Assembly: GCA_040754495.1 (NCBI GenBank)
Contig: JBFMCO010000022.1
Location: 18,233-82,232, forward strand
Reading direction: 5' to 3'
Length of the DNA: 64,000 bases
Source: Candidatus Micrarchaeota archaeon
Lineage (GTDB): Archaea; Micrarchaeota; Micrarchaeia; Anstonellales; Bilamarchaeaceae
The stretch's first letter is position 1; the number at the start of each line of letters is the position of its first letter. Position numbers and translations under genes: made by a program. Of this stretch, positions 375-23,577 are shown in pieces. Below the pieces are notes generated by a model. That model was not told the DNA's origin and did not search any database. It worked only from the letters and a program-made list of their open reading frames with translations.

Positions 375-540
375 GGGCCCATAGCTCAGCTTGGTAGGGG
401 GGCCGCTCTTATTATAAGAGAGGCCTCGCCGTAAGCGACGGACTCTTATCTTTTGGAAAGGCACTTACAGCCCGTTTTGGGCCGCCTTTTCCCAAAAGGC
501 GGAAATCCGTGTGTCGAGGGTTCAAATCCCTCTGGGCCCG
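375..540 (+). tRNA. tRNA-Lys(CUU) with two introns (about 398-433 in the D-arm, 449-504 at canonical 37/38)
   Basis: Acceptor GGGCCCA/TGGGCCC. D-arm GCTC-AGCTTGGTA-G[intron]AGC. Anticodon stem ACGGA/TCCGT with loop CUCUUA[intron]A. T-arm GAGGG-TTCAAAT-CCCTC, discriminator G, no encoded CCA. Splice boundaries are ambiguous by 1-2 nt. Confidence 0.75.
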
Positions 541-1616: not shown

Positions 1617-1946
1617 ATGGCGAAGGAAAAAATCGACTGGTCACAGCCCCCCAACCCGTCACTGCCGTTTATCAGCCCGGAGAACATAGGCGAGGTCGAG
1701 AAGGAGGCGCTGGCGATGGCCAACAAGGCTATTTCTCTCCTTGAGCAGGCGATAGCAGCCTGGGACAACGCTAAGGACAAGCCGCCTGAGCTGAAAGGGA
1801 CGATTCAGAGGTACAGGCGGTTCCACGAGGCGCTGAGCGACTGGGAGAAAAGGATGCTGCAGTCCCTGGGGAAGGCGGATTTCAATGCCCGGGTGAGGAT
1901 GCTCGAGGAGTTCGTGAGGATAAGCAGGGCATACGAGGGTAACTGA
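1617..1946 (+). CDS. small helical hypothetical protein (109 aa), translationally coupled to the giant ORF
   Basis: ORF track. Its TGA stop (1944-1946) shares one base with the ATG (1946-1948) of the giant ORF (TGATG). Confidence 0.55.
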   Translation: MAKEKIDWSQPPNPSLPFISPENIGEVEKEALAMANKAISLLEQAIAAWDNAKDKPPELKGTIQRYRRFHEALSDWEKRMLQSLGKADFNARVRMLEEFVRISRAYEGN

Positions 1947-7900: not shown

Positions 7901-10900
7901 GACCCGTACAAGTATACGTACGGGTGGGCCAAGCAGCAGATGGAGAACGACCAGGACGTCAACCTTGGCAATCCGGCGAGGCCGGACTATGTGAAAGACC
8001 CCCAGCAGAGCTGGGCTTACTATAATTACAGCCCCATCACCGAGTACGGCGCCGACTTCATGGGCTACGAGGAGCTTGGAGGGCGGCTATGGAACTCGGT
8101 CCTTGAGGGAGATGGCAGGAAAGTCCAAAGATACCAGAAGCAGATGCTGGTGATGGAAGCCTCGGTTTTCTATATCCCGGTAGATACCTTCATAGACGGG
8201 ATAAACTCCAAGATTACATACAAGGACTGGCAAAAGAGGATACACTTCCAAGCCATGTATAACGGCGACCTCGCGTATGATGAGCTGTTTGGCGACTGGG
8301 GGCTCATGGACGCGAGGACCGGGGCCAAAATCGCAGAAGGCGTCGGGATGTTTGCGCTCTCCATCGCCACGATGGGCCTCGGGAGCGTTGGTTTCGTCGT
8401 GGGCGGGGGGAAGATGCTATGGGATGCCATAGACGGGATACAGAAGGACCTCGCCAAGTACGGCGAGGTAACCACCATGTCCTGGGTCAACCTCGGCCTC
8501 ACGGTCGTGGGACTCGGAGCGAGCGCAGCAGCAGGCAGGCTGGTGAAGGCGTCCCAGACGGCGATTGAAGCCGCAAAGCTTGGCGATGCTGCTAAATTCA
8601 CCACGCAGGTGGCGCGCGCCGGGAGGTTCGCGACCGCGGCGAGGGTCGTCGCCTACACCGATATAACCGTCAACGTAATCGGCATGGTGCCGCAGTTCTA
8701 TTACGGAATCAAGCTCATGGCGGAAGGGAAATACGCCGAAGGCACGCAACAGCTCGCTTTCGGCGCATTCTCGGCCTTCATGGCGTACCATGGCGGTGTG
8801 CAGCAGCTACGCGGCATGAGGGGCCTGAAGACGGAAATCGCGAAGATGGGGGCGCTGAGAGAGGCGCATGCCAAGGCCCCAGAGGTCTTTGCAAGCCTCT
8901 CTACTCCGGAGGGGATGTTCTCGTTCCTGCAGCGCGTCCGGGCGAGGGACCCGGTCTCGCTCGTCATCTATGACAACCTGCCGAAGCCCCAGCGCATACT
9001 TTTCGACGGGATGCTCGCTGACCGGAACGTCGTTTCCGCGCTCAAGAAAAACGATATCGGCTTGGCTAGGGGCGCCTTCGACAGCGGGCTCGAAACATTT
9101 AAGCAGCTATCCGACCTTGGCGGAACAAGGGCGCTCACGGACGCGGCGCATCTTGGCACGCAGGCCGGCCTCGAGCCGTTCATGAGAGACCTCCTGATAC
9201 CTGAAAGCGCGACCGGCCCGCAGCGCACGCGGAGGGACGCGGCGTATGCGAGGCTGGGGGAGATGAAGAAGCGGCCCGAGACCGCAGAGGCCGCGGCCAC
9301 CATAGAGACGCTGCTCAAGGACAAGGACGTGCAGAAAGGGAACGAAACAGGGGTTCTGAAGATAGGGTGGGCTGCCGACGAGATACGGAGCCAGCAGATG
9401 CAGACGATTAACAGATATACCGATTCAGTCGTGAGCGGCGAGCAGGCCCGCCTCGGATTATATTCGAGCGAAGGCGAAGCCGCGCGCGCGAACGCGAAAA
9501 GGATAGGGGATTCCTACCTTGCATATGCCAGGGCGAGGAGCGAGGGGAAGCCGTTCGACTGGGATTATCACGCAAAACGGATGGGCATGGGGCCGGAGGA
9601 TGCCAAAAAGCTGTTTGCGAAGCTGGATGCCGTGCCGGACGCGAGGACGGTAGCGGGAGTGATATCCAGGGAGGGCGTCCGCCAGGCAGTCCGGAATAGG
9701 GTGGCCCTTGACGGGCGCGCGATACTCGGGGACACGCCGCTTACCGAGCTCGCCGGCGAAGGGGCGCTGTTCTCAAGGTGGGGCGAACTCACCCCTGAAG
9801 ACCTTTTCGGCATGGCGCTAAACAGGAGGGAGAGGGCTGCAGAGGAACTCGAAGGGGCGGGCAGGGAAACGGATGGGAGGCTGGCCGCGGCAAAGAGGGA
9901 ACGGGCGACCGCCCTCTCGCGCGAGGCCGATGCCCTAGATGCAGAGGTAAAAAGGCGGCAGGCGCCCGAGGAGGTATTGACGCCCGATTCACTCCGCAGC
10001 GGCGCAAAGGAGAAGTTCGGGCGGGCCCAGCGCCTGCGCAGCGAGGGAAGGGACGAGGAGGCATTCGCGCTTGAGAGCGAAGCGAGGCGGAGCATAGCGC
10101 TCGCGGCAGACCTGGAGAAGTTCGGCGAATACGGCATCGTCCGTGCGACCCCGGACGGGCAGTTCATACACAGGGATTTCCCTGACAGGAGATTCACAAG
10201 GGCGGAGCTGGATGACGCTGCCATACTCGTGAGGGCCATCAGGAAGAGGGGCGTCCCGACCGACAAGCGCCTTCTGGCCATATACGACGCGCTGCCGAAA
10301 GAGGTCAAGAAGGATTACCGGGGCGGCGAGGACGCCCTGATGAAGTCCGTGCTCGATGTAATCTATTCACGGAGGGGGCAGGCGGCCGAGGCGGCGGCTC
10401 CGGTGCTCCGCTCCGAGGAGCTGCCGGTCCCCTCAGACCCGGCCCTTGCCGCAGTGGCCGGCATGACGGTGCCCGGGACGAACCTCAGGTGGGGAGTGAT
10501 ACCTCCGGACCAGGTGCTTCAGTGGCAGGCGAAGGTCTATGAGGCTTACAAGGCCGCGTACGGGAAAATCGGCCTCATCTACGACAGCCCGGAGGCGATG
10601 TTCGCGAAGAACCCAGAAGTCCTGGTCGCGACGGACGGCGAGGGGAGGATTGTCGCATTCACGATTCTGAAAAAGACCGCTTTCGGGACGAAGCTGTCCC
10701 TTGTCGGGGCGGTGCCTGACATCCCCGAGGGAAGGGCTGCCGCAAGGGCAATGATACAGGGCTTTCCAGCTCTCGAGGGTGCCTATATCACGGCACCGGG
10801 TGCTCCTGCGCATCTTGCAATCAAGGCCGGAGTGCCGGTCGTCCCTTACGATTCGGCAAGAATCATCCAGGGCGAGGTTCCGGCCGAGGCCGGAAGCCCG

Positions 10901-13900
10901 GGCGCGTACCAGAACGGGGAGGGGAAGTGGGTCCGCCAGGAGGCGCAGCGCGGGGACGGTCCTGAAGGCATGGCTGCCATTAGCAGGATGCCAGGGTTCG
11001 CGGACTCGGAGCTCGTGAAGCACGCCATAGCGCAGGACGGGGTGAAGCCCGGCGCGAAGCCCGAGGAGCTCACCTGGAACGACTTGGTTGAGCAGGCGGT
11101 GAAGATGGGCGAGCTTCCGGACAGGCCGGAAGTCAGGCAGAACGCGTTCGCGGTGCCTATGGTGATAAACGGGAAGCCCGAAATCGTGGTCAAGGTCATG
11201 TTCGGCAAGCCGCCGGCAGACGCGCTCGAGGTGCGCTCGGTCCTGCAATCAAGGGGAATTGGCGGGCAGGTAGCCGCGGATGCAATAAACCTTTACAAGA
11301 TTTTCAATGGCGAGCAGGTGCCGCTCGAAGTCGCATCAAGATACATGGACGTCACGCTGCATGACCAGTACACGCGCATAAAGCAGGAGAAGATTGCCTC
11401 TGGGATGCCAGAGACGAAAGCCGATGCCGAGGCCCTCGTGGAGGTAGCCAAAAGCATGGCGCCCCGCGCCGGAGAGGGCGGGTTGGAAGCGGGCGGCCCG
11501 ATATCTCAGGAGGGGGTGGAGCTCCTCAGGATGGCCGAGGGGAAGCTCGACCTCGTGGAGGGGCTGACCGGGGCGGATGTCGCGAAGGCGACACTGGACT
11601 GGAGCCAGCCCAGGCTGGAGATGCTCAGGATTCTTACTGTTGAGGGAAGCCCGTACCGGGAGCGGTTCCTCGCAGCGGACCCGGCCGAGCGCGCGGTCAT
11701 CGCGGACGCGATTGCAAGGGGCGCGACACCGGAGCGCGCGTTCCTCAAGGCGGCCGAGGGCATGGTGCCTGCGGATGGCCGAAAACTGCTTGAGGTGGGA
11801 GAGCGGCTGAAGGGGCTTCCCGAAGCAGAGAGGAATCTCAGGTTAAGAGACCTTGAATCGCTGAATCCGGCCCTCGGAAGGATGCTTAAGAGGCTGGCGG
11901 ACCCTGCGACTCCGGAAACTGTGAAACAGGAGATTGCGGCCGAATGGGATTCGGCTGTTGCGGGCGCAGAGAGGCATAAGCGGGTCAATGAGGCGAGAGC
12001 GGCGCGGGACGCTGCGCAGCTTGCTGAGCAGGAGCTCGCCCTGCTGAAAGGGACGCCGGACGAGCAGGCCGCAGGACGCGTGCCGGCATGGATAGAGTCG
12101 GCCGCGAAGGCAAGGGGAAAGGACCCCGCGGCGCTCCATGAGGCGCTCGTGAAGGCATACGGAGAAGGCGGAACCGAAGGCAGGCTCAGGGTGCTTAACG
12201 AGCTGGGCGCGCTCGGCGGGATGCCTGAGGGGGTGCGCTCCACCTTCGTGCAGAACAGCCCGGAGTTCTTCGAGCTCATAGTGCGGGGCGGCCTTGAAGG
12301 CCGCGTGGCGGCGATGCCTGGATTCGAGGGCGGGATCATAGTCAATGCGGAGAAGCTCGAGGGGCTTCGCGGGGCGTACAAAATCGACGTGGAGATGCCG
12401 GACGGGTCAAAGCGCTCGCTGTTCGTGAAGGCCGAAGACCTGGTGCCGGCGCAGCTTGGAAGCGAGCTTGCCGGGGGGCATGGGCTTCTTCCGCCCGTGA
12501 TACACGCGGCCGACGGACAGGGCATGCCCTTCACCTATGATACGGGGATAAGATACACGGACCCCGTCTCAGGGCAGGAGACGGCGCACATGCAGGAGTT
12601 CGGCATAATGGAGGACGTCCATGATTATGCGACAGCCAGGCACAGCGACGTCATCATGCTTCCGGACGGCAGGAGCGCGCAGGTTACCGTGGAGAGCGTG
12701 GCGGTCGTCTCCAGGGAGGTGTTCGCGGACCCGGCGAGGATGCAGGCGATACTAGCGGACGAGCATCATCCCGCGCACAAGGTTGTCAAGGCGTTCTGGG
12801 AGCTTGCAAAAACAGAGGAGGGAAGGCAAAGGATTTTCCAGGCATGGCGGGCCTATCACGAGCTCTCGAGGAGGGCCATGCTCCTCGACCGGTTCGACAG
12901 GAACACGGTGGCAGTGCTCGTCACCACCCCGGAGGGAGAAAGCGTCCTCACGTTCCAGCCCATCGACATGGACTATGTGGCGGGAAAGATAGGCTCGGAC
13001 GGCGACCTTCGGTTCTTCAATGACGACTTCGCGTCAGCGAGCGTGGATTTTGCTACGAAGATTGCGGGGGCTGCGGGGGTTCCCGCAGAGACCGTCCTGG
13101 GAGAGATGGCGAAGGCGTACGGCTCTGACAGTGTGTTCCCGCGCGAAGCCGCGGACGAGAGGGCGGCCGCAGCGGCCTCGGTGCGCGCCACGCTGAACAA
13201 ATACGACGGCAAGCCTTTCGGGGCCGGCTACGACGTCGAGGACTACGGCAAGACGATTGGAAAGGATTACGTCGAATACGGCGGCAGGGACAGGATAGTC
13301 GGCCGGAGGGACGGCCGCGCGATTCTGCACGCCGGCGACATCACCCCGCTCGGCGAGCGGATAGGCGGGGCCGAGGCTGAGGCCGATTTCAGCAGGTTCA
13401 ATCGGGAGAAGTTCGAGAGGATGGCAAAGCCGCTCGAAGAAGCGGCTCCGCCTCCGGCAGTGGAAGCGCAGCCGCCCGCCGGAGAGAAGACTCCGCCCGG
13501 AAAGCGCGGTGCCGGCAACGTAACGCCGCCGGCAAGGCCGGGTGCGATGCGGGGCGCGCCTGCAGGCGGGCCGAGAACCGTGCCGGGCAAACGGGGGGCC
13601 GGAGGCGGGGAGCCGGTTGCAGCGCCGGGCGGAAGGAGGAAGGTGGCAATCGGAGGCGGGGAGGTGGAGCTCGAGCCTGCGCCGGAAAGGGCTCCGGAGC
13701 TCGCCGCGATGAAGATAAGCGAGGACGAGCTTTCGCAGCTCGGCGTCTCATACCAGGGCCTTTATCAGGACGGCGCAGGGAGGAGGCTGAACGTATTCGA
13801 AACGGAGGCCGGGGGGGAGAGGAGGCTTGTCGCCATCCCGGCAGACCTCAGCGGGAAGGCGATGCTCGATGCAATCGGGGCCGAGGTGCGCGCCCTGGGA

Positions 13901-16900
13901 AGGCCGACGGAACTGCCGCCGGAGCTGCGCGGCATGCCGCCGGACGTTTCGTCCCAGGTCGGGATGGACGGGGCGCCAAAGGCAAGGCTGCTCTCGTCCG
14001 AGCCCCTGGGGCGCGGCTCGAGCGCGGACGTGTATCTTGCGGAAATGGTGATTGACGGAAGGCCGACCCGCGTCGCGGTGAAGATATACAAGAACCCGGA
14101 GGGAAACGGGACGTGGCAGGAGCGGGCAGAATATTTCGCGGACGAGGTGAGGAAAGCGAAGATCCTGGGCGATGCAGGCCTCGGCCCGAAGGTGTTCGGG
14201 ATTGCCGATGCGGGCGGGAACATGGCTTTCGCGATGGAGGTCATCGAAGGCAAGCCGATGTACATAGACGAGATGGCGCCCGGGCTCCGCGCGAAATACA
14301 TCAATGAGGACACGTTCGCGCAGGTCCGGAAAATGTATGACGAGCTGATAGCCCACGGATACGAAATCGGCGATTTCGATTTCATGATATTGACCGAAGG
14401 GCCGAATGCCGGCAGGGTTGTGTTCCTGGACGCCGGGGCGCTGCGGGAGGTGCCGCGCGGCGCCCAGGGCGAGCCACGGCCAAGGTACGGCGACGGCGCG
14501 AAGAGGGCGGAGGGCGGGAGGCTTCAGGCTGAGGCCATGACCGCCATGGAATATTTCACGAAGATGGACCGCGACGAGCTTGCCGCGGTAGCCGAGGTCT
14601 CGAAGGGCCTGCTCGGACAGGGCCATGTGGATTCGGACACCATGCGCCTGCTTGCGGTAAGATGGGGGAGCCGCGAGGGAAGGGCCAGGGCGATAGGAGA
14701 GTATATCACCAGTATCGCAGGGGCCGATGAGCAGAAGGCAAAGGCCACGTTCGACGCGCTGAAACGCATCGAGGCGGAAACCGGCATACGGCTGCTGCCG
14801 GATGGCGCGAGGTTCGAGGACCTTGCAGCCAGGGCGGGGGAGGGCGAGATATCGGAGGCGGAAATCATCGCGCCGATGTCAGGGGACGATTACCATGCCG
14901 CGCTCGCAGGGATGCGCACGCAGGCAGCACGCGAAAGCGTAGCGCTCCACTTCAGCGGAAGGGGCGAAATCCCGGACGCGGCCACCTTCGAAAATGCTGC
15001 CATACTGGCCGATGAGGCGGCAGGCGCGAAGGTGCCGGAGCAGGGCCAGGCCGAGCTGTCCGTATATTATGATGGGAACGGCAGGATAATCGGCATAGCG
15101 GATAACGAGCGGCTCTTCTACGGCGACCCCAAGGCGATAAATGACAAGACGCCGGAGGCGAAGGTCAGGGTGGACCTGGAGAGCGGCAGGATAGTCTCCA
15201 TGGACGAGCGCGGCATGAAGAACCCGCTCCTTGCGGACCTGGTAGGGCTGAGGATACTTCCGGGCAAGGGAGCGGAGGGCGCAGGGCCCGGCGGAAGGGG
15301 CCCGCCACCGTTGCCCCCGATGAAAGTGCTTGACGAAGGCAGCATAGTTTCGGCTTATGCAAGCGGGACAGGGCAGGCGCAGAGGACGAGGGCCGCCCGG
15401 TCGTTCGTGATGCTCGATGGCGAGGGGCAGGGGAGGGTGATATCGGAGCTGCGCTCCCAGGGCCGCCATGAAGAGGCCAGGCATCTTACCGAGCTGCAGG
15501 CGATAGGTGGGGAAGCCGGCGCAGGCATCGAAAGGGTTTACGGAATCCCGAGGGACGAGATTATCACGATATACGCGCGGGAGCCGACAGCCCAGGGCGC
15601 GAGGAAGGCGCTCGCGGAGAGGCTCGGCATCGTCATCCTGCCTTTCGAATGGGAGCATTATCCTGCGGACAGGAGGCAGTGGGTGTCCGTCCCGTACCGG
15701 GATTTCAGGTCTTTCGAGGACGACCACTTCCTCTTCGGGCTCATTACCTCAGGGAACATGATTGACACGGTCTCGCAGATGTATCCGGGAGGGAGGATAG
15801 CCTCCATAGAATACCATAACGGGGCGATAGGCGCTTACGAGGTCGCCATCAGGACGCAAAACGGGGAGACGCGCACCGTTTTCGTGAAGAGGCAGGATTT
15901 GCGCCCGGATGCGGCCGGCTCGGACTACTCGGTCCGCTCAGGCGTCCCGGCTCCTGAGGTCATCACCAGCGCCGGAGGCAGGGAGCTTACTTACGTCGGC
16001 CCGGACGGGGAGGTCTCGCGCTACGGCATTATAACCAACATGAGGGATTTCGGGGGGATGATGAGGTTCGGGGGAGTCGAGGCGCAGGTCAGGGCTACGG
16101 ACGAGACCGCGCTGTGGGACCTCGACAGGAGCCCCCTTGCCGGCTCGCTCATGTCTCAGGACCCGCAGGTGAGGGCGAAATTCTGGGAGGAGCTCGGCTA
16201 CATGCTGGCAGGCTCTTACGCGACCGGGATATGGGACAGGCATGCGGGAAACGCGCGCGCGATGGTCCTCGAGGTGCAGAACGCGGACGCGCACACGAAC
16301 CCCGCGGACCAATCATCACCGACAGTGGGCGAGGCGCTGTCGCAGAAGGGCTACTGGGTGTGGCAGCAGGACGGAAAGACGTACATGTTCATGATAGGCG
16401 GCATAGACACCGACACCGCGGCCAACTACCTTGCCGGCGAGGCGCACGGCAGCTTCGACATGACCGGCATGAACATAAGGTACGGCTATGTCGACCTCCA
16501 CAGCCTCTTTAACAGGCTAGCGACGATAAGAGGCACGAGCGTGGATGCGCTCGTCATGGAAGCCTTCGGCGATGTCAGCGGCGGTCAGGTGCCCGGCCCG
16601 GTCGCGATGGGCATGAAGAGGTGGTGGCGCGACTTCGGGAGCGACCCGCACTATGCCGATGAGATGGCCGGCCGGTTCTCCAGCCACGAAGGCGAGAGCA
16701 TAGGCTTCGGATACCCCAGGACCGAGCAGGAGCTGGACGTGATAAGGCAGGGGGGCGTGCTCCATCAGGAGAATCCGCAGAACGGCGACCCTTACACCAT
16801 CATCGCCTTCGCTGACGGCAGGTCTCGGATGAGGCCGGAATACGAGATAGTGCACCGTGAGGACATCGAAGCCCTCGACCCGCGCATAGCCGCGATGTTC

Positions 16901-19900
16901 CCTCCAGGGAGGGACATGTACGCCGTGGAGATAACCGGCGAGGTGCGGAAGGCCGTTCCGGACATAGACAAGAGGACGAACCGCATCCGGACCTCGGACG
17001 GCAGGATGGTCGCGATAATAGACTCGGCCGACCCGCTCGCGAAAACGCTGCTCGACGGGGGAATTCCTATGGTGAAGGCGAGGCGCGACATGCCCCGGCA
17101 GGGAGAAGTTGCCGTGGATGATGCGACCGGCATAATACGGGCCGCTCCAGGGTTCGGAAAGCTGACCGGAATCCAGGCCTACCAGGCCGGCCCGGTTCCG
17201 GTTTTCCGGGCGATGATGGGGGCAGGGGAGGGGTTCATGCTCGGGCAGTTCGCGCACATCGGCCATTATATATTGGCCAAGGAAACGAGCGTGAGGGAAG
17301 CCGCGCAGGTTCCTGCCGGAGTGGTGGCCGGGGAGATAGAAGCGCCGGGAATAGAGCGCATGCCCGCCCCGGCGCAGGTGGAAGGGGTAAGGGGCGGGAT
17401 GAGGGACCTGGTAGGGGCAGTCAGGTCCGGAGACGAGGGCAGGATAAGGGCCGCGGAAGCCGAGTACGATAAGAGGCTCGGAGTGCTGGCCAGGCTAAGG
17501 CCAGATACGGAACTGAGGGTCGTGGAAAACGAGACGCTGTTCGCGGACCTGGCTCCAGGGGGGCAGGCACAAGCGAAGGTGCTCGCGGCAGACTATCTCA
17601 GGAACAGGTCCGCAGGAAAGAAGCTTGACGGCGACCTGCTCGTCATCGACTACCTCGTATCGCATGGAATGAACGCGGTGGATGCGGCTGCGGCAGTCGT
17701 GAATCTGGGGGGCGCCGGGAAGGCGCCTGCCCCTGTGACGCTTCCGCCGTACGTTGCCGAGCACTTCGGGACCAGGCAGCCTGACCCGGTCACGGCTGAA
17801 AACGCGCTGATTCTTGCCGGGGACAGGAATACGCTCGGAAGATTGGGCATACCGGACGGCCTTGGCAGGGTCCTGAAAAGCGAGGGCATGGCTGTCGTGT
17901 CCGAAGGAAAGAGGATGACCGAGGTGAGAGGCTATTACGATCTGGAGAGCGGCAGGATAATATACCTCGGCAGGACGGACGCGCCAAGGGAGGTCACGGC
18001 GGGAGGAGTGGAGTTCGTCCTCCGTTTCGACCATGAGAGCGGGAGGGTATCCATTCCGGAAAGCGAGGACGTGCCGCTTCCGGATTCGATTGCCAGGCTG
18101 AACGGAATGCGCATTGCGCCCCCGCCCCAGGCAGTGCCGTTTGGCGTTTTCGGCATTTTCATGCCACTGTTCAAGTATTTCAGGAAGCCCCCGGCAGCCG
18201 CCCCGCAACCTGAGGCCGTGCCCATCAAGGTCCCGAGGTCCAGGAACGACATCCAGGGAAGGGCCGAGGGCATAAGGGGGCTGCCCCCGGACCAGCAGGC
18301 GCAGGAGCTTGCGGGGCTGCACGATGCCGTGGCCGCCGAGCATGGCGACGTTTATGCGAGGAATTACCGCGACATGATGGAGGAGCTGGTGAAGCATCCG
18401 GAGCATTCGGGCAGGATTCTCGACGAGTGGGAGGCGGTGAGGGCCGAGGAGAAGCATTACGAGGCGCTCGAGAGGGCGAGGAGGTATGCCTTCTCGGCCG
18501 CAGAGGGGTTCGGGATTGTCAGGGGGCAGGACAGGAAGCTCATATCAGGCGGAGAGTACGCGGCGGACATGGCACGCTCGAGGGGCGAGAAGCCCAAGGC
18601 ATTCCGGAAACGGCTCCTCGAAGCGTATGATGCCGGGTTCAGGAGAGGAGGCGTGCTCGATGCGAGGCTCGGCGTGGCAAATTCGCTGGGTGTGCTCGAC
18701 AATATAGTGGTAGAGTCGCGGCCGGGCGTCTTGGACGAAAAGAGGACGATGCAGGCGAGGAAGGAATTCATCAGGAAGAACCCGGAGTTCTTCGACCTAA
18801 TCATGAGGGGCGGACTCGAGGAGGTCATCTCCGCGAACCTCGGGGCCGGCGACGTGAGAATCGCAGGAGTCTCGCACGCGGGCGGCATGGCGCGGGGCGC
18901 GTACGGCGTGGAGGTCCTCCTTCCGGACGGCAGGAGGAAGCGCGTGTTCGTGAAGCTGGAGGACCTCGGGCCTGCCGCGTTCGGGGCTGATTTGGCCAGA
19001 GTCGAGGGCATGATTGCGCCGAAAGTCTTCACTGCGGATTCGCAGGGAAGGCCGCTCTCGTATGACGTGAGCTACAAGGACCCCATCGGAAAGAGGATGG
19101 TGAGCGGCCAGAGGCGCTTTGGCATCATGCTGGATGTCCGCGACACGGTAGGGCAGAAGGCCAGGGTGAGGACCGCGGACGGGAGGTTCAGGGAGATAAC
19201 GGTCACGAGCGTGGCGCTCGTTGGCGACGACATCTTCAATGCCAGGTCGCTTGACGGGATACCCCAGCCCTCCAGGGCCGCCGCGGAGGACTTCTGGACC
19301 GCAATGGGAAGCGAGGGCGGGCGCGAGGAGATGTTCAGGACGTGGTACGCGTACCAGGAGATGTCAAGGCGGGCCACCCTCAGCGACAGGCACACCGGGA
19401 ATTCGATGTACGTCATCGGCGTGACGTCGGATGGCGAGACCGTGAGGACGTTCCAGCCCATAGACCCGGACGATATCGGAGCCAAGGTCGAGGCCAGGCC
19501 GGAGGGCATGAACTTCAGCGAGTTCAACGATTTTTCCGCGCTCTACACGTCGAATTTCGTGAACGGCCTGTACCTCGCGTCGGATAACGCCGCGAGCCTC
19601 GGCCTGCTCAAATCCCCGATCAACCGCGCGCAAGCGAGCAGGGCAGCATCGAGCGACGCCGCGATGTCAGGGTGGAGGCTTCCGGAAGACCCCGGGTGGG
19701 TGAGGTCCGCGGCTGAGTTCATAATCATGGATTACGATGGCAAGCCGTTCGGCCTCGGAACGGACATGACGATAGGCGGGCACGGCTCGTACATAAAATA
19801 CCATGCCGGCAGGAGGAGGGCGGCAGGCTACGACGGCCGCGTCCGGATGTACTCGGACGAGATGCTGGCGGTTTATCGGGGAGCGCAGGACCCTGCCAAC

Positions 19901-22471
19901 GCGGCGGATGTCGCGCGCAGGGTGGATGAGCGGATGGGCTGGGAGAACGCCGGCCACATGAGGGCGCTTGAGCGGAGGTATCCGGACCTCGGCACCCTGC
20001 CTCCGCACATGCAGGAGTACAGGGAGCCCCTCGAGCGTGCGCGCAGGCGCATAGCGGGCGGCGAGAAGCCCGATGACGTTTACCTTGACGAGTCGAAGAG
20101 GATGCTGAGGGCTAATCCCCGGGAGAGGGCGAAGGCCGAGGACATAATCACGAGGCACGGGAGGGGCGTGGCAGACGCCGAGGTGTCCGCGGTCCTGGAG
20201 TTCCAGAAGAGAAACGGCATCGCGTCTTTCGAAGATGCGGCGTATGCATTCGTGAGACAGCAGGCCGCGCCGAAACCTCCAGCGGAACCGCTGCAGCCAT
20301 CCGAAGCCATTTACCGGAAGCATGAAGCGAATATTTTCGGCCCTGCCCGGGGGCAGCTTGGCAGCGAGCTCCTTGCCAGCCTGAGGGGCGCTGAGGAGAG
20401 GATAGCCGGCATGGTGCCTGAGGGGCCGGAGAGGGAGCGCGCGCTCAAAAGATGGGGCGAGTTTGCAGACCGGGCGCTCTCGCGCATCGCCGATCTCCCG
20501 GCACCCGAGCGCGCGGACGCGCTGGCGCGCTTCATGATAGCGGGCGACTATCTCCTCACAAGGGCGGCTGAGAACCCGGCGCGCACGAAGGCATGGCTCG
20601 ATTTCATCGCCGACAACCCGAACGCCGTCGAATACGCCATGCTCGCCAAACGAGGTCTCGACATAAGGGCGCAGGACATAGTCGTGGCCGAAATCCGCCC
20701 CAGCATCCATGACATGTCTGACAGGAAAGCGCTGAAGAAGGCCCTCGGGAAGAGGGTATCGTTCATGGAGGACGTGATACGCGAGATACCGGAAAGGTGG
20801 TTCATGGAGGCGGGGGTGAGGCGCGATTATATGATGGACCTTGCAGGTTCCGACCCGCTCAGGGCGGCGGCCGAGCTCGACCGCGTCACGATGCCGCACG
20901 GAATCAGTGTTGTGAGGAAGGCAACGGGCGTGTACCTCGCAGAGGTCTCGCACACGTTCTCGCTGCATGGCCAGCCGGACATCCGGGGCCTCGTAATAAC
21001 CGGCGCTTACGGGACGGGCGACATGTTCGACGGCATGACCGCGTATTTCAATCCCCTCAGCGGCAGGATTTTCATGCGCGGGACTGCCCATTTCGCGGAG
21101 GCCGGCATACCGGAATCCGCGCTTCCGGGCATGAAGATGACGTACGTGCATGAGATGCAGCACCTGCTCGACAACGCCGGCGGGTATGTCGCGGCACTCT
21201 CGGCCAGGTCTGCAGGGCGCGGAATGGCCTTCATGCCGGAATACCGCGCCAGGCTCGAGACCACGGCGGTCGCGAGAGAGGTCCTGGAGATGGTTCCCCG
21301 GCTGGGGGGCCGCGGGACCGAGGATGCCATCAACGCAGCCATCAGGAAGGACCCGGAGGAATACAAGCAGGCTTACAGGAAGGCGCTGGACGCCATGCGC
21401 ACAGGCGAGGACGGAAGGCCCGACCCGGACTGGGCGGGCAGGCCGCCCGAGGTTCTGCAGAACCGGCTGAGGAAGCTTATAGACGACGAATACCGGAGCC
21501 TTATGCCGCTGAGCTATACCGAGCTCTACGGGCCGACAACCGCAGGGATCGTCCGCGGGGAGATCACGGTCAGGAAGCCGGCCGCCCCCGAGGCCGTTCC
21601 CTTCAAGCCCGCCGTAGCCGCGGACTCGGCTCCGGGACGCGGGGAGCCGGACCTGCTGCGCTCTGCCAAGTATGAAAATGGAATCCTGACGATAGAGGCG
21701 GATTACCTGGGAGGCGAGCTTGCACATGCGGTGAAGCCGCAATTCGCCGAATCCGCGGTGAATGGCGAGTTCATCCCTTCCGGCGACAGGACAAAGCCGA
21801 GCGGCCTGTGGCTCTCGTGGGGCTCCGGCTGGGATTACTTCACAGGGAGCAACCCCGGCCTGATGTTCAAAGGCACCGTGAAGTTCAGGGCCGAGATGAG
21901 GTCCGGATTGAAGCTCTTCCTGCTTGACGGGCGCGAATCTTTCGATAGCATGATGGCCGAATTCCGGCGGGAAGTTAAGGTCGCCGAGACAACGGGGAGC
22001 GGGTATCCGGATGGCACCTGGCCTGATAACAACTGGGTGTACTACGAGAAGAGCCCATGGCAGTGGCTTAGGGAAAGGGGCTATGACGGCGTGGCCGTGA
22101 CGGAGGAGGGATATCTGGATACCAATTTCCAGTTCGGCTGGGACGCGGCCTCCATAGTCATTTTCGAGCCTGCGGGCAATGTGCGCCTGCCTGGAGGCGA
22201 AGCCAGGCTGGAGGAGTACAGGAAGGGTGCCCAGGGCAGCGCGGACGCCATGCTGCCCCTTATTGAAGAGGCAGGCCTGCCGTTATTCGGCCCGAATAAG
22301 GCGTATGACCTCATAGAGGCGTACGCCGGCGGCAGGGCTGAGCGCAGCCCGGGAAAGCGCATCGATGCCGAGGATGAGGCTTTCCTTAAAAAGCTCCTGG
22401 ACGAGAAACCGGGCCTTGAAGAGGCTGCGAAAAGGATTATCGAATACGTTAGAAAGAGGGAAGGGGGATAG
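1946..22471 (+). CDS. giant multidomain protein, 6,841 aa (repetitive helical region, hydrophobic cluster, 3 atypical kinase-like modules, 1 ePK/RIO-like module, HExxH site, unassigned C-terminal domain)
   Basis: Single uninterrupted ORF in the track. Competing ORFs inside it are antisense or off-frame, low-complexity Arg/Pro/Ser/Ala-rich shadows. Several catalytic-type motifs are conserved (see sub-features). Confidence 0.85.
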   Translation: MGQKPAERQPEVRDEGVRVAQPQVPMVPREQPRGGANEAAANAATGLGVMGKFAAVLDFIIADPSRAEGRLAEFSRRLEPYRADYPEETRIALGLFGAASRMYREAQDARAHGDTQRAQELEDSARAHFREGMAKAGSVPGMAQDIHSLAGAGASPEWIESRKAAFNDVGLGTWNRAIAIDQAVEWRVKNDAIIDAGGPAAREAEARMRDEAVRLAEGSRQGQAFSEQDYQDTMRRFSEASAPVTALAAHIHGAAALFHQAAMRQGVSEQYTKAMEDLKKEFDKLLKKLEEGTATKEDVEKAKELADAVKAAETDLEGLSGDDAVTVSGIHARGLSALRQGKGEMARVQRQLAREYAKTKDPGMRKKLERWSADLAKGKAPEAELERWLEAQRPAEFRALTTENIKRETAERAGLLREKGYERSHPRETKRIAELDREAAKALEEAKALRKRGDLDGAGKLEAKAFRLLREARAKVLWLERLDRFQARLAGIKEPPEMKKAAEEVSKALGGAFNFIGTQDGWRARLAFIAADVFIRYGKVLQSKPAAPLLKGILSIVGILSDPRKKVDEKRAQEEVGRLEPKALSAELGGLKGKVDDKAHSKLTDAVKAASGFIGTNQQWRAAYLLRGVKFFLDNREKIGTRGKLFEGIMGFLGRLADPKGEIGEEEAKREFARITGIPAEAPAQAGGRREAALTVAGLKQAGEGFEKRLRAIPGHEEQVRSITETVKLAGEEFRAGNVKKAQELLALAEKKAAALEGVVEREKRIDASGAPEEAREKLKKAGLAAFNDLGKQSGGRFDTVVKATDLFLGGMERKLWLQPGGETAALKLLDFIGRLGEGALQGLEFDSQAAESELSDISAQAGELWKAMLGASITEWLRLIEGWRTMGGLGTANAKFLDDLAESYRALQKRLEEGAKAEDIEQEASALEARAEHAKKIGEELEERERAVAVFRGDVEDFKADTAAFRASERFKKYAADAEPYVKKAEEWEEKAATFMAEAEKLEGDAKAEMIKRAADAVKRSEELLGHAGKIIGLREAGASDEVVSAYRKAANSYIAVFEPAPPGLAGEAQIFPDDVLAYAAIVFSAADSYLFFRKHGRAEAEKRAERLVLGTTFASRIADAEAELRGLDGEMEYAEAIDSDTAARKQKLMDSATELRGDKRKVPKPREGSAEWYGQMALDALERGDFAVADLAVYRGMFEKVAPGGGRNYVPEDIERDISAVLRGEKVPAAGELDRYLTLIDSASLTAQADLLKRDNPVSGSAEERERKQRVHKLAEEIKRRADAHDFAGAERLLEMATVYTGLARDKKWKAFAGADRMEAALDAELAGGDHSGEFQAAVVYQKASEETASFRASLADWGAGLAENKKLVERGLLRVEQLVSEGKTEEAGALFGQLMLYAGAVRTFAAPKKRDVIPGFDPAYDSSKLGGMGLALDALIKGEAEVGGKKPEEVFSQSFLETQREYLNKRADAYLRLSEKMPVGAETVGQGLAEVRRRAAEGDFEGALRLLEMAGNYYGEAAPGKQAGWRYRDATRKGPGYERGRQDMLNAISMEIAAKDPADHDEALETFNSGSQRISVAKAAIERYEIVERNIYNALPTAVIDEWDHHGTIALRGEPTPENEEGPVLGRVSMEKIRRYESEHPDDTALGGGLSLKTLLTKMKKAAEEGDDEAFRKYEKAFFSRLYLVAGRILRREQLEENRQEVKKYIEVLEGFTAAITIDQLVPYGWLEGDDERLKKVTALEKQLKNNEISKAEFESKLNVILSERLQMIEQNKFTDKVPGPMRETVRQLAPRAKALLERARGLYGKLEKMDNNSSEFPLEEYKQVVKDLSALTEEYQTQRKISVAYSHIDQQLQMNKSYHEAIAGEGALASDYPDAYGRAVKFLGFSNGHFKKAQELLLKGEFKQAGAEFERGINRREWALMEADPNVLFGQANTYLGNLPISMLTGVPIIPESTTAMDEVSMIKHRPGWGVLKLAARGRGEDPYKYTYGWAKQQMENDQDVNLGNPARPDYVKDPQQSWAYYNYSPITEYGADFMGYEELGGRLWNSVLEGDGRKVQRYQKQMLVMEASVFYIPVDTFIDGINSKITYKDWQKRIHFQAMYNGDLAYDELFGDWGLMDARTGAKIAEGVGMFALSIATMGLGSVGFVVGGGKMLWDAIDGIQKDLAKYGEVTTMSWVNLGLTVVGLGASAAAGRLVKASQTAIEAAKLGDAAKFTTQVARAGRFATAARVVAYTDITVNVIGMVPQFYYGIKLMAEGKYAEGTQQLAFGAFSAFMAYHGGVQQLRGMRGLKTEIAKMGALREAHAKAPEVFASLSTPEGMFSFLQRVRARDPVSLVIYDNLPKPQRILFDGMLADRNVVSALKKNDIGLARGAFDSGLETFKQLSDLGGTRALTDAAHLGTQAGLEPFMRDLLIPESATGPQRTRRDAAYARLGEMKKRPETAEAAATIETLLKDKDVQKGNETGVLKIGWAADEIRSQQMQTINRYTDSVVSGEQARLGLYSSEGEAARANAKRIGDSYLAYARARSEGKPFDWDYHAKRMGMGPEDAKKLFAKLDAVPDARTVAGVISREGVRQAVRNRVALDGRAILGDTPLTELAGEGALFSRWGELTPEDLFGMALNRRERAAEELEGAGRETDGRLAAAKRERATALSREADALDAEVKRRQAPEEVLTPDSLRSGAKEKFGRAQRLRSEGRDEEAFALESEARRSIALAADLEKFGEYGIVRATPDGQFIHRDFPDRRFTRAELDDAAILVRAIRKRGVPTDKRLLAIYDALPKEVKKDYRGGEDALMKSVLDVIYSRRGQAAEAAAPVLRSEELPVPSDPALAAVAGMTVPGTNLRWGVIPPDQVLQWQAKVYEAYKAAYGKIGLIYDSPEAMFAKNPEVLVATDGEGRIVAFTILKKTAFGTKLSLVGAVPDIPEGRAAARAMIQGFPALEGAYITAPGAPAHLAIKAGVPVVPYDSARIIQGEVPAEAGSPGAYQNGEGKWVRQEAQRGDGPEGMAAISRMPGFADSELVKHAIAQDGVKPGAKPEELTWNDLVEQAVKMGELPDRPEVRQNAFAVPMVINGKPEIVVKVMFGKPPADALEVRSVLQSRGIGGQVAADAINLYKIFNGEQVPLEVASRYMDVTLHDQYTRIKQEKIASGMPETKADAEALVEVAKSMAPRAGEGGLEAGGPISQEGVELLRMAEGKLDLVEGLTGADVAKATLDWSQPRLEMLRILTVEGSPYRERFLAADPAERAVIADAIARGATPERAFLKAAEGMVPADGRKLLEVGERLKGLPEAERNLRLRDLESLNPALGRMLKRLADPATPETVKQEIAAEWDSAVAGAERHKRVNEARAARDAAQLAEQELALLKGTPDEQAAGRVPAWIESAAKARGKDPAALHEALVKAYGEGGTEGRLRVLNELGALGGMPEGVRSTFVQNSPEFFELIVRGGLEGRVAAMPGFEGGIIVNAEKLEGLRGAYKIDVEMPDGSKRSLFVKAEDLVPAQLGSELAGGHGLLPPVIHAADGQGMPFTYDTGIRYTDPVSGQETAHMQEFGIMEDVHDYATARHSDVIMLPDGRSAQVTVESVAVVSREVFADPARMQAILADEHHPAHKVVKAFWELAKTEEGRQRIFQAWRAYHELSRRAMLLDRFDRNTVAVLVTTPEGESVLTFQPIDMDYVAGKIGSDGDLRFFNDDFASASVDFATKIAGAAGVPAETVLGEMAKAYGSDSVFPREAADERAAAAASVRATLNKYDGKPFGAGYDVEDYGKTIGKDYVEYGGRDRIVGRRDGRAILHAGDITPLGERIGGAEAEADFSRFNREKFERMAKPLEEAAPPPAVEAQPPAGEKTPPGKRGAGNVTPPARPGAMRGAPAGGPRTVPGKRGAGGGEPVAAPGGRRKVAIGGGEVELEPAPERAPELAAMKISEDELSQLGVSYQGLYQDGAGRRLNVFETEAGGERRLVAIPADLSGKAMLDAIGAEVRALGRPTELPPELRGMPPDVSSQVGMDGAPKARLLSSEPLGRGSSADVYLAEMVIDGRPTRVAVKIYKNPEGNGTWQERAEYFADEVRKAKILGDAGLGPKVFGIADAGGNMAFAMEVIEGKPMYIDEMAPGLRAKYINEDTFAQVRKMYDELIAHGYEIGDFDFMILTEGPNAGRVVFLDAGALREVPRGAQGEPRPRYGDGAKRAEGGRLQAEAMTAMEYFTKMDRDELAAVAEVSKGLLGQGHVDSDTMRLLAVRWGSREGRARAIGEYITSIAGADEQKAKATFDALKRIEAETGIRLLPDGARFEDLAARAGEGEISEAEIIAPMSGDDYHAALAGMRTQAARESVALHFSGRGEIPDAATFENAAILADEAAGAKVPEQGQAELSVYYDGNGRIIGIADNERLFYGDPKAINDKTPEAKVRVDLESGRIVSMDERGMKNPLLADLVGLRILPGKGAEGAGPGGRGPPPLPPMKVLDEGSIVSAYASGTGQAQRTRAARSFVMLDGEGQGRVISELRSQGRHEEARHLTELQAIGGEAGAGIERVYGIPRDEIITIYAREPTAQGARKALAERLGIVILPFEWEHYPADRRQWVSVPYRDFRSFEDDHFLFGLITSGNMIDTVSQMYPGGRIASIEYHNGAIGAYEVAIRTQNGETRTVFVKRQDLRPDAAGSDYSVRSGVPAPEVITSAGGRELTYVGPDGEVSRYGIITNMRDFGGMMRFGGVEAQVRATDETALWDLDRSPLAGSLMSQDPQVRAKFWEELGYMLAGSYATGIWDRHAGNARAMVLEVQNADAHTNPADQSSPTVGEALSQKGYWVWQQDGKTYMFMIGGIDTDTAANYLAGEAHGSFDMTGMNIRYGYVDLHSLFNRLATIRGTSVDALVMEAFGDVSGGQVPGPVAMGMKRWWRDFGSDPHYADEMAGRFSSHEGESIGFGYPRTEQELDVIRQGGVLHQENPQNGDPYTIIAFADGRSRMRPEYEIVHREDIEALDPRIAAMFPPGRDMYAVEITGEVRKAVPDIDKRTNRIRTSDGRMVAIIDSADPLAKTLLDGGIPMVKARRDMPRQGEVAVDDATGIIRAAPGFGKLTGIQAYQAGPVPVFRAMMGAGEGFMLGQFAHIGHYILAKETSVREAAQVPAGVVAGEIEAPGIERMPAPAQVEGVRGGMRDLVGAVRSGDEGRIRAAEAEYDKRLGVLARLRPDTELRVVENETLFADLAPGGQAQAKVLAADYLRNRSAGKKLDGDLLVIDYLVSHGMNAVDAAAAVVNLGGAGKAPAPVTLPPYVAEHFGTRQPDPVTAENALILAGDRNTLGRLGIPDGLGRVLKSEGMAVVSEGKRMTEVRGYYDLESGRIIYLGRTDAPREVTAGGVEFVLRFDHESGRVSIPESEDVPLPDSIARLNGMRIAPPPQAVPFGVFGIFMPLFKYFRKPPAAAPQPEAVPIKVPRSRNDIQGRAEGIRGLPPDQQAQELAGLHDAVAAEHGDVYARNYRDMMEELVKHPEHSGRILDEWEAVRAEEKHYEALERARRYAFSAAEGFGIVRGQDRKLISGGEYAADMARSRGEKPKAFRKRLLEAYDAGFRRGGVLDARLGVANSLGVLDNIVVESRPGVLDEKRTMQARKEFIRKNPEFFDLIMRGGLEEVISANLGAGDVRIAGVSHAGGMARGAYGVEVLLPDGRRKRVFVKLEDLGPAAFGADLARVEGMIAPKVFTADSQGRPLSYDVSYKDPIGKRMVSGQRRFGIMLDVRDTVGQKARVRTADGRFREITVTSVALVGDDIFNARSLDGIPQPSRAAAEDFWTAMGSEGGREEMFRTWYAYQEMSRRATLSDRHTGNSMYVIGVTSDGETVRTFQPIDPDDIGAKVEARPEGMNFSEFNDFSALYTSNFVNGLYLASDNAASLGLLKSPINRAQASRAASSDAAMSGWRLPEDPGWVRSAAEFIIMDYDGKPFGLGTDMTIGGHGSYIKYHAGRRRAAGYDGRVRMYSDEMLAVYRGAQDPANAADVARRVDERMGWENAGHMRALERRYPDLGTLPPHMQEYREPLERARRRIAGGEKPDDVYLDESKRMLRANPRERAKAEDIITRHGRGVADAEVSAVLEFQKRNGIASFEDAAYAFVRQQAAPKPPAEPLQPSEAIYRKHEANIFGPARGQLGSELLASLRGAEERIAGMVPEGPERERALKRWGEFADRALSRIADLPAPERADALARFMIAGDYLLTRAAENPARTKAWLDFIADNPNAVEYAMLAKRGLDIRAQDIVVAEIRPSIHDMSDRKALKKALGKRVSFMEDVIREIPERWFMEAGVRRDYMMDLAGSDPLRAAAELDRVTMPHGISVVRKATGVYLAEVSHTFSLHGQPDIRGLVITGAYGTGDMFDGMTAYFNPLSGRIFMRGTAHFAEAGIPESALPGMKMTYVHEMQHLLDNAGGYVAALSARSAGRGMAFMPEYRARLETTAVAREVLEMVPRLGGRGTEDAINAAIRKDPEEYKQAYRKALDAMRTGEDGRPDPDWAGRPPEVLQNRLRKLIDDEYRSLMPLSYTELYGPTTAGIVRGEITVRKPAAPEAVPFKPAVAADSAPGRGEPDLLRSAKYENGILTIEADYLGGELAHAVKPQFAESAVNGEFIPSGDRTKPSGLWLSWGSGWDYFTGSNPGLMFKGTVKFRAEMRSGLKLFLLDGRESFDSMMAEFRREVKVAETTGSGYPDGTWPDNNWVYYEKSPWQWLRERGYDGVAVTEEGYLDTNFQFGWDAASIVIFEPAGNVRLPGGEARLEEYRKGAQGSADAMLPLIEEAGLPLFGPNKAYDLIEAYAGGRAERSPGKRIDAEDEAFLKKLLDEKPGLEEAAKRIIEYVRKREGG
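8330..8800 (+). other. hydrophobic/Gly-rich cluster (probable membrane-spanning segments) inside giant ORF
   Basis: Translations such as GVGMFALSIATMGLGSVGFVVGGG, WVNLGLTVVGLGASAAAG and LAFGAFSAFMAYHGG. This is the only strongly hydrophobic stretch I saw in the 6,841 aa. Confidence 0.45.
12245..13370 (+). other. atypical kinase-like module A of giant ORF (catalytic-loop His replaced)
   Basis: FVQNSPEFFELIVRGG... SLFVKAEDLVPAQLG (Lys codon 12428-12430) ... LLDRFDRNTV (12887-12904) ... FQPIDMDYV (12962-12973) ... KYDGKPFGAGYD. Collinear with modules B and C. Confidence 0.55.
13970..14470 (+). other. ePK/RIO/Bud32-like small kinase-like module of giant ORF
   Basis: Gly-rich loop LGRGSSADVY (from 14006), VAVKIYK (Lys codon 14081-14083), AHGYEIGDFDFMIL (Asp 14372-14374), VVFLDAGAL (Asp 14429-14431). 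No Asn follows the putative catalytic Asp. Confidence 0.5.
15790..16720 (+). other. atypical kinase-like module B of giant ORF
   Basis: GAYEVAIRTQNGETRTVFVKRQDLRPDAAG (Lys 15887-15889), GIWDRHAGNARAM (16235-16252), MIGGIDTDTA (16400-16414). Confidence 0.55.
18767..19880 (+). other. atypical kinase-like module C of giant ORF
   Basis: FIRKNPEFFDLIMRGG... GAYGVEVLLPDGRRKRVFVKLEDLGPAAFG (Lys 18953-18955), LSDRHTGNSMYV (19385-19402), FQPIDPDDIG (19457-19471), DYDGKPFGLGTD. Confidence 0.55.
21149..21163 (+). other. HExxH motif (HEMQH) in the C-terminal region of giant ORF
   Basis: MKMTYVHEMQHLLDNAG. cat gag atg cag cac lies in the giant-ORF frame. Confidence 0.5.
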
Positions 22472-22489: not shown

Positions 22490-23026
22490 TCAGGGCACGG
22501 CCTGCCCGTTTATCACGAAGCTGAATTTCTGCCTCTCCTTCTCAAGCGCCTTCACGGTTTCCAGAGAGTCCTTCAGCATGCGCAGGAAAGGCTCCCAGGA
22601 GCCGCTGCCGGAATGGATGCTGCGGATGGCCTCGGAAACGACGACCTTCCTTTTCTTGTCCACGAAAGTGCAGTAGATGCTGCTTCCCCGGCGCCTGACA
22701 TCGATGCCGTATTCCGCGAAATCCTCCTCCGGCGGAAGTGTGGCGCCGAGCGCGAGCGCGGATGCGACGGATTCTATCCCCTTCCTCGGCTCGGACGAAT
22801 AGGACTGGACGCCGACGCCGTCCTTGAGATAAAGGCTGTCCGGAATCCTGAGGAGCGGCTCCAGCTCCCGGGGCATCCCGCCGGCGATTTCCGCGAGGGT
22901 GTCCATGAGGCGCTCTTTAGTTGCGCGGTCCCGCAGGAGCGGATCTGCCAGCATCTTCTGGAACCTTTTTTCGCCTATGTCCGTTACGGTTGCTCCGGCC
23001 GTTTTCTTTTTTCTCTTTCCTGCCAT
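22490..23026 (-). CDS. small hypothetical protein, paralog family member 1 (array convergent on giant gene)
   Basis: ORF 22490..23032 (GTG); ATG at 23026 preceded by GGTG. The core IPDSLYL...YGIDVRRRGSSIYCTFVDKKRKVVV...GSWEPFL aligns with the 24133..24663 product. Its stop lies 18 nt from the giant ORF stop. Confidence 0.65.
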   Translation of the reverse strand: MAGKRKKKTAGATVTDIGEKRFQKMLADPLLRDRATKERLMDTLAEIAGGMPRELEPLLRIPDSLYLKDGVGVQSYSSEPRKGIESVASALALGATLPPEEDFAEYGIDVRRRGSSIYCTFVDKKRKVVVSEAIRSIHSGSGSWEPFLRMLKDSLETVKALEKERQKFSFVINGQAVP

Positions 23027-23028
23027 CG

Positions 23029-23577
23029 TCACACCAGGTACATGTCGCCGCAGTCGCTGACCGCTACTCTCCCCGGCTTCGCCTTCGCGGCTGCCTCGGC
23101 GGCCCTTATCGCGCCAGCGACTTCCGCCCAGTCCTTTTTTTGCGGCTTGTCCATATAGCGCATGAGCGGCTCCCTCACCATTATCCTCCGGCCCATGTCC
23201 GCGAGCACGAGATAGACTGTGCTTGTCGTCTCATAGACGGCGATGCCGTATCCCATGTCGGGCTTCCGGTCCATATGGCCGGATGAAAGGAAACGCGCCA
23301 GGACAGCGTTTATCCCGAACCCGGCGTCATCCGAAAGCGTGATTGCATTACCGGCCTCGCGCCGGTAAAGGCGCGCGGGGAGCGCAAGCGCCGCCTTGAC
23401 ATCCTCGCTCCAGTTCTGCGCGTATCCTGCAAGGCCCGAAGCGGCGTCCTCCCGCGACACGGAGGCAGGTGGCGCAGCTTCTGCAAGATGGCCTTCAGTG
23501 GCGCCGGCCTTCGCGATGAACGGCTTTTCCGGCGGAGGCAGGGGCACTGGACCGCGGGCATCCCTTTTCTTTGGCAT
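23029..23577 (-). CDS. small hypothetical protein, paralog family member 2
   Basis: ORF track. LPARLYRRE...GYGIAVYETTSTVYLVLADMGRRIMV is collinear with members 1 and 4. The stop is 2 nt before the next start. Confidence 0.6.
   Translation of the reverse strand: MPKKRDARGPVPLPPPEKPFIAKAGATEGHLAEAAPPASVSREDAASGLAGYAQNWSEDVKAALALPARLYRREAGNAITLSDDAGFGINAVLARFLSSGHMDRKPDMGYGIAVYETTSTVYLVLADMGRRIMVREPLMRYMDKPQKKDWAEVAGAIRAAEAAAKAKPGRVAVSDCGDMYLV

Follow-up and report, generated by a model that had tools for sequence, protein, structure and literature searches.

Can a protein kinase lose the Asn of its catalytic loop and still be a kinase? The question is raised by a giant open reading frame (ORF) in a stretch of Candidatus Micrarchaeota DNA, 64,000 nucleotides long (GenBank assembly GCA_040754495.1, contig JBFMCO010000022.1, positions 18,233 to 82,232 of the forward strand), which was analysed whole and is called the window here. 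Residues 4009-4175 of this single uninterrupted ORF form a kinase-like module that a preliminary description took for a possible pseudokinase or nucleotide-binding scaffold, the residue five positions past the putative catalytic Asp being Ile. The comparisons set out below point instead to a genuine minimal protein-kinase-like (PKL) ATP-phosphotransferase domain at residues ~4010-4170, probably catalytically competent and likely protein-directed. Its fold and superfamily are already known; what is unusual for a Hanks/RIO-like domain is the architecture of the catalytic loop.

A kinase fold outside the domain databases

The peptide on which the preliminary description was based agrees exactly with the translation of nucleotides 13970-14470 (+), and every motif quoted in it is found where it had been placed. 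When 1.84 billion representative proteins were searched exhaustively with phmmer, 62 relatives of the module came out at E<=1e-3, 21 of them at E<=1e-10, most embedded in proteins of 1000-7700 residues. Conservation was counted over an alignment of 64 domains. The Gly-rich loop keeps G4024 in 61 of these and V4029 in 51; the VAVK lysine K4046 is kept in 61, the αC glutamate E4067 in 59, the Pro after αC (P4081) in 60 and the catalytic Asp, D4143, in 63. At the hinge, M4097 is found in 54/64 and Glu or Asp at 4098 in 59/64, while G4102 is present throughout; the column of D4162, in the DFG-equivalent D-x-G motif, has Asp in 59 and Glu in four. In the curated alignment A1 (48 sequences), K4046, G4102, D4143 and D4162 are invariant, and G4024 and E4067 reach at least 90%. 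Since the motif residues first picked out in the window coincide with the conserved columns of the family, the module is a real, selected domain.

With the module as query, Pfam and NCBIfam give nothing at threshold, a word-index homolog search finds no relative (one 87-residue fragment, and no other match, with the A1 profile), and the PDB gives marginal matches (E=0.045 for the best), almost all to protein kinases aligned at the Gly loop and VAVK. The family profile, compared with all PDB sequences, matches PknA at 2.7e-9 (profile positions 15-172) and StkP at 2.9e-6, and also MARK, PAK4, TkArkI, Bud32 and HopBF1; it has 226 matches at E<=1, and among the 60 matches listed all are kinases. 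One of the 62 phmmer matches, P0058 (library-wide E 4e-4), is a canonical Hanks kinase with HCDLKPGNIL...DFGLS. It was left out of the family profile, which hhalign aligns to it with 95% probability (E=2.4e-8), placing D4143 on the HCD Asp. The Gly loop of the module aligns with those of PknA, StkP and P0058, K4046 with VAVK of PknA and StkP, AMEVIEGKPM with 'vMELVnGe' of PknA, and D4162-A-G with the DFG of PknA.

AlphaFold2 reaches a predicted local distance difference test (pLDDT) score of 39.5 on the single sequence and gives a confident model with the family alignment (pLDDT 89.8, predicted template modelling score 0.82), in which β1-3, αC, β4-5, the hinge, αD/E and β6-9 follow one another in kinase-like order. 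The module has the bilobal fold of the PKL superfamily, with a β-sheet N-lobe, αC and a catalytic core, and its β3 Lys, αC Glu, catalytic Asp and metal-binding Asp each align to the PknA counterpart. Fold, homology and conservation of the module are established here. The profile search, suggested as a check in the preliminary description, returned kinases, and the outcome that would have told against the fold, no kinase match in sensitive profile or structure searches, did not occur.

The module had been described as resembling eukaryotic protein kinases (ePKs), RIO and Bud32. The kinase fold stands, by profile and by model; the sequence is nearer to the Hanks type than to RIO or Bud32. It does not belong to the Hanks-type ePKs as usually defined: the query has no match to Pfam PF00069 or PF07714, which match 3 and 6 of the 48 members, weakly (best E 0.014 and 0.0034), and HRD (G-D stands in its place, with neither His nor Arg), an activation segment running to APE, the αF Asp and the GHI helices are lacking. 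Compared with the Ser/Thr kinases PknA, PknB and StkP, the family has no His-Arg before the catalytic Asp and no Lys168 equivalent; its catalytic loop is three residues shorter, with Gln or Asp for Asn; and the domain stops ~10 residues past D-x-G, with Pfam Pkinase below threshold. The α-kinase hallmarks (α-kinase fold, zinc module, GXA(G)XXG) are also absent.

RIO and Bud32 are the closest structural analogues of similar size, and they keep H-x-D-x-x-x-x-N. RIO kinases have a similar Gly loop and a different catalytic loop, and their N-terminal helix and flexible loop are missing from the family. The STGKEA loop, HxDLSxxN and IDxxQ that go with Pfam RIO1 (PF01163) are not seen, nor is a Bud32 profile match or a Kae1/KEOPS gene association. 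In the manner of RIO and Bud32, the module might bind and hydrolyse ATP, possibly via autophosphorylation, to drive or gate a step in the conformation or assembly of the giant protein. This is unlikely: the affinity to Hanks kinases is the stronger one, RIO1 matches a single member of 48 (E=0.07), FHA domains co-occur with the module in one relative (P0018), and there is no ribosome or KEOPS context, RIO and Bud32 being ribosome or KEOPS factors and the module here part of a giant multi-module protein.

The family lies outside the coverage of Pfam and NCBIfam, and the module is its founding example. No mention of it was found in papers on the giant genes of Omnitrophota and archaea, or in a 2026 preprint on PKL discovery.

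The shortened catalytic loop

The Ile reported in place of Asn is indeed there (D4143 +5 is I4148), and the position is hydrophobic (V, I or L) in every member, so that N171, carried by a 3-10 helix at the catalytic Asp +5 in PKL kinases, has no counterpart at that distance. It does not follow that the loop has no equivalent of the Asn, because the loop is three residues shorter and the equivalent position is the second after the Asp (D+2). This column holds Gln in 56 of the 64 domains, Glu in three, Asp in two and Asn in one (P0043), and is thus polar (Q, E, D or N) in 62. Asp is found in the window protein, as residue 4145, and in P0001, the relative closest to it (54% identity).

Four observations identify D+2 as the Asn equivalent. 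(i) The HMMER alignment sets the family D-f-Q-y-l-v against D-V-[kpg]-N-I-L-I of PknA, with a three-residue deletion and Q on N. (ii) A graded series of loops runs from the canonical to the short form: D-L-K-P-G-N (P0058), D-V-G-A-N (P0043), D-S-P-Q (eight members), D-x-Q (the majority) and D-x-E/D. (iii) From the D+2 column to the Asp of D-x-G the spacing is 13 in 20 members, equal to that from N to D in PknA (NILITPTGQVKITD), whereas from the catalytic Asp to D-x-G it is 15 in the family and 18 in PknA. (iv) PKA N171 sits at the start of β7, and in the model β6 comprises residues 4139-4141 and β7 begins at 4145. The register of the loop is in this way established.

The stretch from the catalytic Asp to N171 is regarded as a nearly immutable, family-defining signature (PMC1261164, PMC1821047). 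Scheeff & Bourne found the 3-10 helix that carries N171 "highly resistant to alteration" and absent, within their set, only in ChaK and PIPKIIβ (PMC1261164). In the α-kinase ChaK/TRPM7 the loop is linear, without a 3-10 helix, and reads D-x-Q, the Gln at D+2 (Q1767) putting its amide where that of N171 would be (PMC1261164). ChaK differs in its N-lobe, has a zinc module and shows no detectable sequence similarity to ePKs. The present family, with its Hanks/RIO-like sequence affinity, has nonetheless reached the same D-x-Q arrangement, and the resemblance is taken as convergent because the domain is otherwise clearly ePK/RIO-like.

Could the loss of the Asn have inactivated the module and left it as a nucleotide-binding or docking surface? 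No member has Asn at D+5, the His and Arg of HRD are gone, and in the window protein even the Gln of the family is replaced by Asp. The suggestion is very improbable all the same. Uncompensated loss of the β3 Lys, the catalytic Asp or the DFG Asp, which marks a pseudokinase, is not seen: all three are present, and with the Glu they are invariant or nearly so over 64 domains from two domains of life, while the lost Asn is compensated by a mostly polar D+2 that aligns with the Asn of PknA. Purifying selection on the full catalytic set is unusual in pseudokinases. ChaK, moreover, has this D-x-Q loop and is an active kinase. Nor does the replacement of Gln by Asp in the window protein suggest decay, because 16 of the 17 family columns of about 80% identity or more are kept, this being the sole change, and because it is shared with P0001. 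Of the ten PKL residues singled out as key by Kannan et al. (PMC1821047), G52, K72, E91, D166 and D184 are kept in the family, as probably is P104 (as P4081); G55 has become Ala, H158 and H164 are absent and N171 is replaced.

Catalysis and substrate

The module is probably a competent kinase core, most likely directed at protein. The predicted N-lobe is complete, with the Gly-rich loop, the VAVK lysine, the αC Glu and the Pro after αC, and is followed by the hinge, αD/E, the catalytic Asp and the Asp of D-x-G. K4046 and E4067 would position the phosphates of ATP, D4162 and D4145 would bind Mg2+ (the role of D4145 being read from alignment and strand register), and D4143 would serve as catalytic base for transfer of the γ-phosphate. 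The acceptor would most likely be Ser/Thr of a protein, or the giant protein itself. Activity, Mg2+ ligation by D4145 and substrate are in this scheme predictions from sequence.

A protein substrate is plausible because the sequence is Hanks-like, FHA domains occur in one member, and the structural neighbours include effector kinases of comparable size. These are HopBF1 and OspG, minimal bacterial kinases that differ from the module in being stand-alone secreted proteins of Gram-negative pathogens and whose sequence relation to the family is marginal. The module might instead phosphorylate small molecules (lipids, sugars, antibiotics) or carry out another nucleotide-dependent transferase chemistry on a PKL scaffold, such as SelO-like AMPylation. 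This is improbable: the top sequence and profile matches are protein kinases, the Brenner motif of the APH family (HxDxxxxN) is absent, and there is no metabolic gene context.

Several points weigh against a protein-directed, competent kinase. The family lacks the His/Arg of HRD, any counterpart of Lys168, the P+1 loop, an activation segment and αF-I, elements through which a protein substrate might have been expected to bind. Asp for Gln or Asn at 4145, found in 2/64 sequences, could lower activity. A sub-group of four proteins from Micrarchaeota (P0021, P0023, P0025, P0027), which also has an insertion of ~20 residues after the VAVK strand, carries Glu for Asp at D-x-G ('FIENW'). FHA domains co-occur with the module in P0018 alone. 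Finally, RIO and Bud32 are thought to work mainly as ATPases.

The giant protein and its relatives

The features of the giant gene and its surroundings are collected in Table 1. The conserved unit extends beyond nucleotides 13970-14470, the span first assigned to the module, which does lie there: BLAST homology to P0001, P0002, P0003, P0007 and others covers residues 3990-4293, beginning LPPELRGMP. The kinase core ends ~10 residues past D-x-G, without activation segment, APE motif or αF-I helices, and in 18 family members it is directly followed by the tail domain (tail hidden Markov model, HMM; alignment A4). The tail has no convincing relative in the PDB or Pfam; matches to RecA (E=4e-5) proved spurious, as the sequences behind them are concatenated RecA fusions, of which no one stretch passes by itself. 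Conservation in the family and order in the family-alignment model stop at the same distance past D-x-G, pLDDT being below 60 from about residue 4180. The P/G/R-rich linker said to precede the module is present, though ~90 residues lie between the two. Two antisense ORFs over the module (13748-14626 and 13765-14385, both -) have no Pfam match, and Rfam finds no RNA in this region.

Table 1. Coordinates of the giant gene, its modules and its neighbours in the window
Feature	Nucleotides	Strand	Residues and remarks
Leader ORF	1617..1946	+	109 residues; stop overlaps the giant gene start codon; conserved before other giant genes
Giant ORF carrying the module	1946..22471	+	6841 residues
Module A	12233-13135	+	~3430-3730
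P/G/A/R-rich linker, 5' of conserved unit	13433..13645	+	3830-3900; P 21%, G 21%, A 18%, R 10%
Whole conserved unit (N-terminal LPxELxGMP motif, kinase core, linker, tail)	13913..14827	+	3990-4294; from BLAST, alignment A2 and tail HMM
Minimal protein-kinase-like core	13973..14455	+	~4010-4170
Gly-rich loop LGRGSSADVY	14006..14035	+	4021-4030; G4022, G4024, A4027, V4029
K4046, β3 lysine (VAVK)	14081..14083	+	within RVAVKIYK, 4042-4049
E4067, αC glutamate	14144..14146	+	in model helix 58-77; aligns to the αC Glu of PknA
Gatekeeper/hinge AMEVIEGKPM	14231..14260	+	4096-4105; M4097, E4098, G4102
Shortened catalytic loop G-D4143-F-D4145	14369..14380	+	within AHGYEIGDFDFMIL, 4136-4149; catalytic Asp and Asp at the Asn-equivalent position
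D4162-A-G, DFG equivalent	14429..14437	+	within VVFLDAGAL, 4158-4166
Tail domain	14474..14827	+	4177-4294, ~115 residues; ends ALKRIEAETGIRLLP
Module B	15731-16555	+	~4596-4870
Module C	18758-19585	+	~5605-5880
Three paralogous ~180-residue genes	22490-23032, 23029-23577, 24133-24663	- (all)	convergent, immediately downstream of the giant gene

No family reaches threshold over the whole giant protein in Pfam or NCBIfam. Its N-terminal ~2100 residues (1946-~8200, +) are rich in Ala, Glu, Arg and Lys, coiled-coil-like and internally repetitive, with a weak tape-measure-like match in an otherwise empty PHROGs scan. A Gly/Ala-rich hydrophobic stretch follows (residues 2100-2300), in which residues 2133-2151 are the sole clear hydrophobic, transmembrane-like segment of the protein in a hydropathy scan. 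Strong purine skew marks the coding strand along the whole gene.

Modules A, B and C are related to one another, and the kinase module has no internal paralog. Together with relatives in seven other giant proteins (alignment A3), A, B and C have an invariant K (FVK), D-R-x-x-x-N and I-D-x-D, which resemble the catalytic motifs of PI3/4-kinases or HipA; that they are kinase-like is a guess from these motifs. They have no PDB relative by single sequence or profile, and hhalign gives 1.8% probability against the kinase family.

A HEMQH (HExxH-type) motif lies at 21149-21163 (+; residues 6402-6406), in a region (6165-6557) with 48% identity to residues 5257-5644 of P0003. The region may be a metalloprotease module; it has no Pfam match. 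A short motif, G-[IVLM]-x-[IL]-[LA]-P, spotted by eye in the translation, recurs near several unit ends (ETGIRLLP at 4279-4285, VGLRILP at 4433-4439, RLGIVILP at 4548-4555 and LNGMRIAP at 5384-5391). It could be a module-boundary mark, a docking strand or a processing site.

The leader ORF, ~105-120 residues long across loci, is shared by the window with L001, L002 and L004. The ORF immediately before P0002 (L004 162-482) is 38% identical to it (E=4e-17), and a homolog in the Micrarchaeia locus L002 (~14009-14370) directly precedes a second giant ORF of at least 2194 residues that runs off the locus. The leader has no Pfam family and may be a dedicated partner or chaperone. Homologs of the convergent ~180-residue genes are found in L002, where they lie just downstream of the giant P0003 gene, and in L001 too; neither of the two genes scanned belongs to a Pfam family. 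These shared neighbours suggest a Micrarchaeota-like (DPANN) source for the window.

The window is archaeal chromosomal DNA; elsewhere it encodes CysRS, RpiA and the PolD large subunit DP2, whose gene (31778-36658, -) is split by an intein that carries a LAGLIDADG homing-endonuclease domain. ARAGORN calls an 80-nucleotide tRNA-Gly(CCC) at 461-540 (+), ~1.4 kb 5' of the giant gene and below the Rfam gathering score, and at 42984-43041 (-) Rfam has a partial tRNA match (30 bits, model positions 10-63) where ARAGORN makes no call. Both may be archaeal tRNAs of an atypical or intron-containing kind.

The closest overall relative of the giant protein is P0003 (MFN7991193.1, Candidatus Micrarchaeia archaeon, 6069 residues), with the same modules in a different order. 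In P0001/L001, P0003/L002, P0024, P0028 and P0032 the kinase unit forms the extreme C-terminus. The unit therefore acts as a shuffled cassette, given the reordering in P0003 and its terminal position in several proteins. Named Candidatus Micrarchaeia/Micrarchaeota sources are those of P0003, P0021, P0025 and L002; L001 comes from an unclassified archaeal metagenome-assembled genome, P0006 (7727 residues) from Candidatus Omnitrophota and P0018 (KKU88134.1) from Candidatus Gottesmanbacteria, within the Candidate Phyla Radiation (CPR). P0021 (MEW6035941.1, 6147 residues) and P0025 (MEW6035948.1, 6652 residues) are giant paralogs seven locus tags apart on one 47-kb Candidatus Micrarchaeota contig. 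The window protein and seven relatives were scanned with Pfam; of these eight giant proteins six have no domain at all, P0007 has an HD domain, and P0018, at residues 422-568 and ~1124-1328, joins the kinase module with two FHA (phospho-Thr-binding) domains.

In the JGI metagenome contigs one relative was found and no more. A viral origin is argued against, since the BFVD viral fold library gives generic kinases alone and no relative was found on viral contigs in IMG/VR. Assignment to a defence system was set aside, PADLOC giving just a weak PD-T4-6 match in the N-lobe.

What would such a module mean for these organisms? In ultra-small lineages that depend on hosts (Micrarchaeota, CPR, Omnitrophota), it would be one of several enzyme cassettes shuffled among giant proteins. 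Only the lineages involved and the analogy with HopBF1 and OspG suggest a host-directed effector role. The wider scenario is tentative: a new PKL family may have arisen from Hanks/RIO-like ancestors by deletion of the 3-10 helix and convergent gain of a ChaK-type D-x-Q ligand, and spread by gene transfer across domains of life as a core-plus-tail cassette in giant proteins, otherwise beyond annotation, of episymbionts and predators of ultra-small size (Micrarchaeota/DPANN, CPR, Omnitrophota); its role there would be that of an effector kinase aimed at the host.

For kinase evolution, a Hanks-like family has removed a near-immutable stretch of the loop and put Gln, Asp or Glu in its place, a rare remodelling of an active site that can be traced stepwise because the intermediates D-x-x-x-N and D-S-P-Q survive. 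For annotation, dozens of giant "hypothetical proteins" contain the recurrent module, and a profile of the family would label it there. To Pfam, giant proteins from DPANN, CPR and Omnitrophota are for the most part "dark matter", and the module is an experimentally testable enzymatic unit within them, for which a phospho-signalling or effector function is indicated by the FHA domains of one member.

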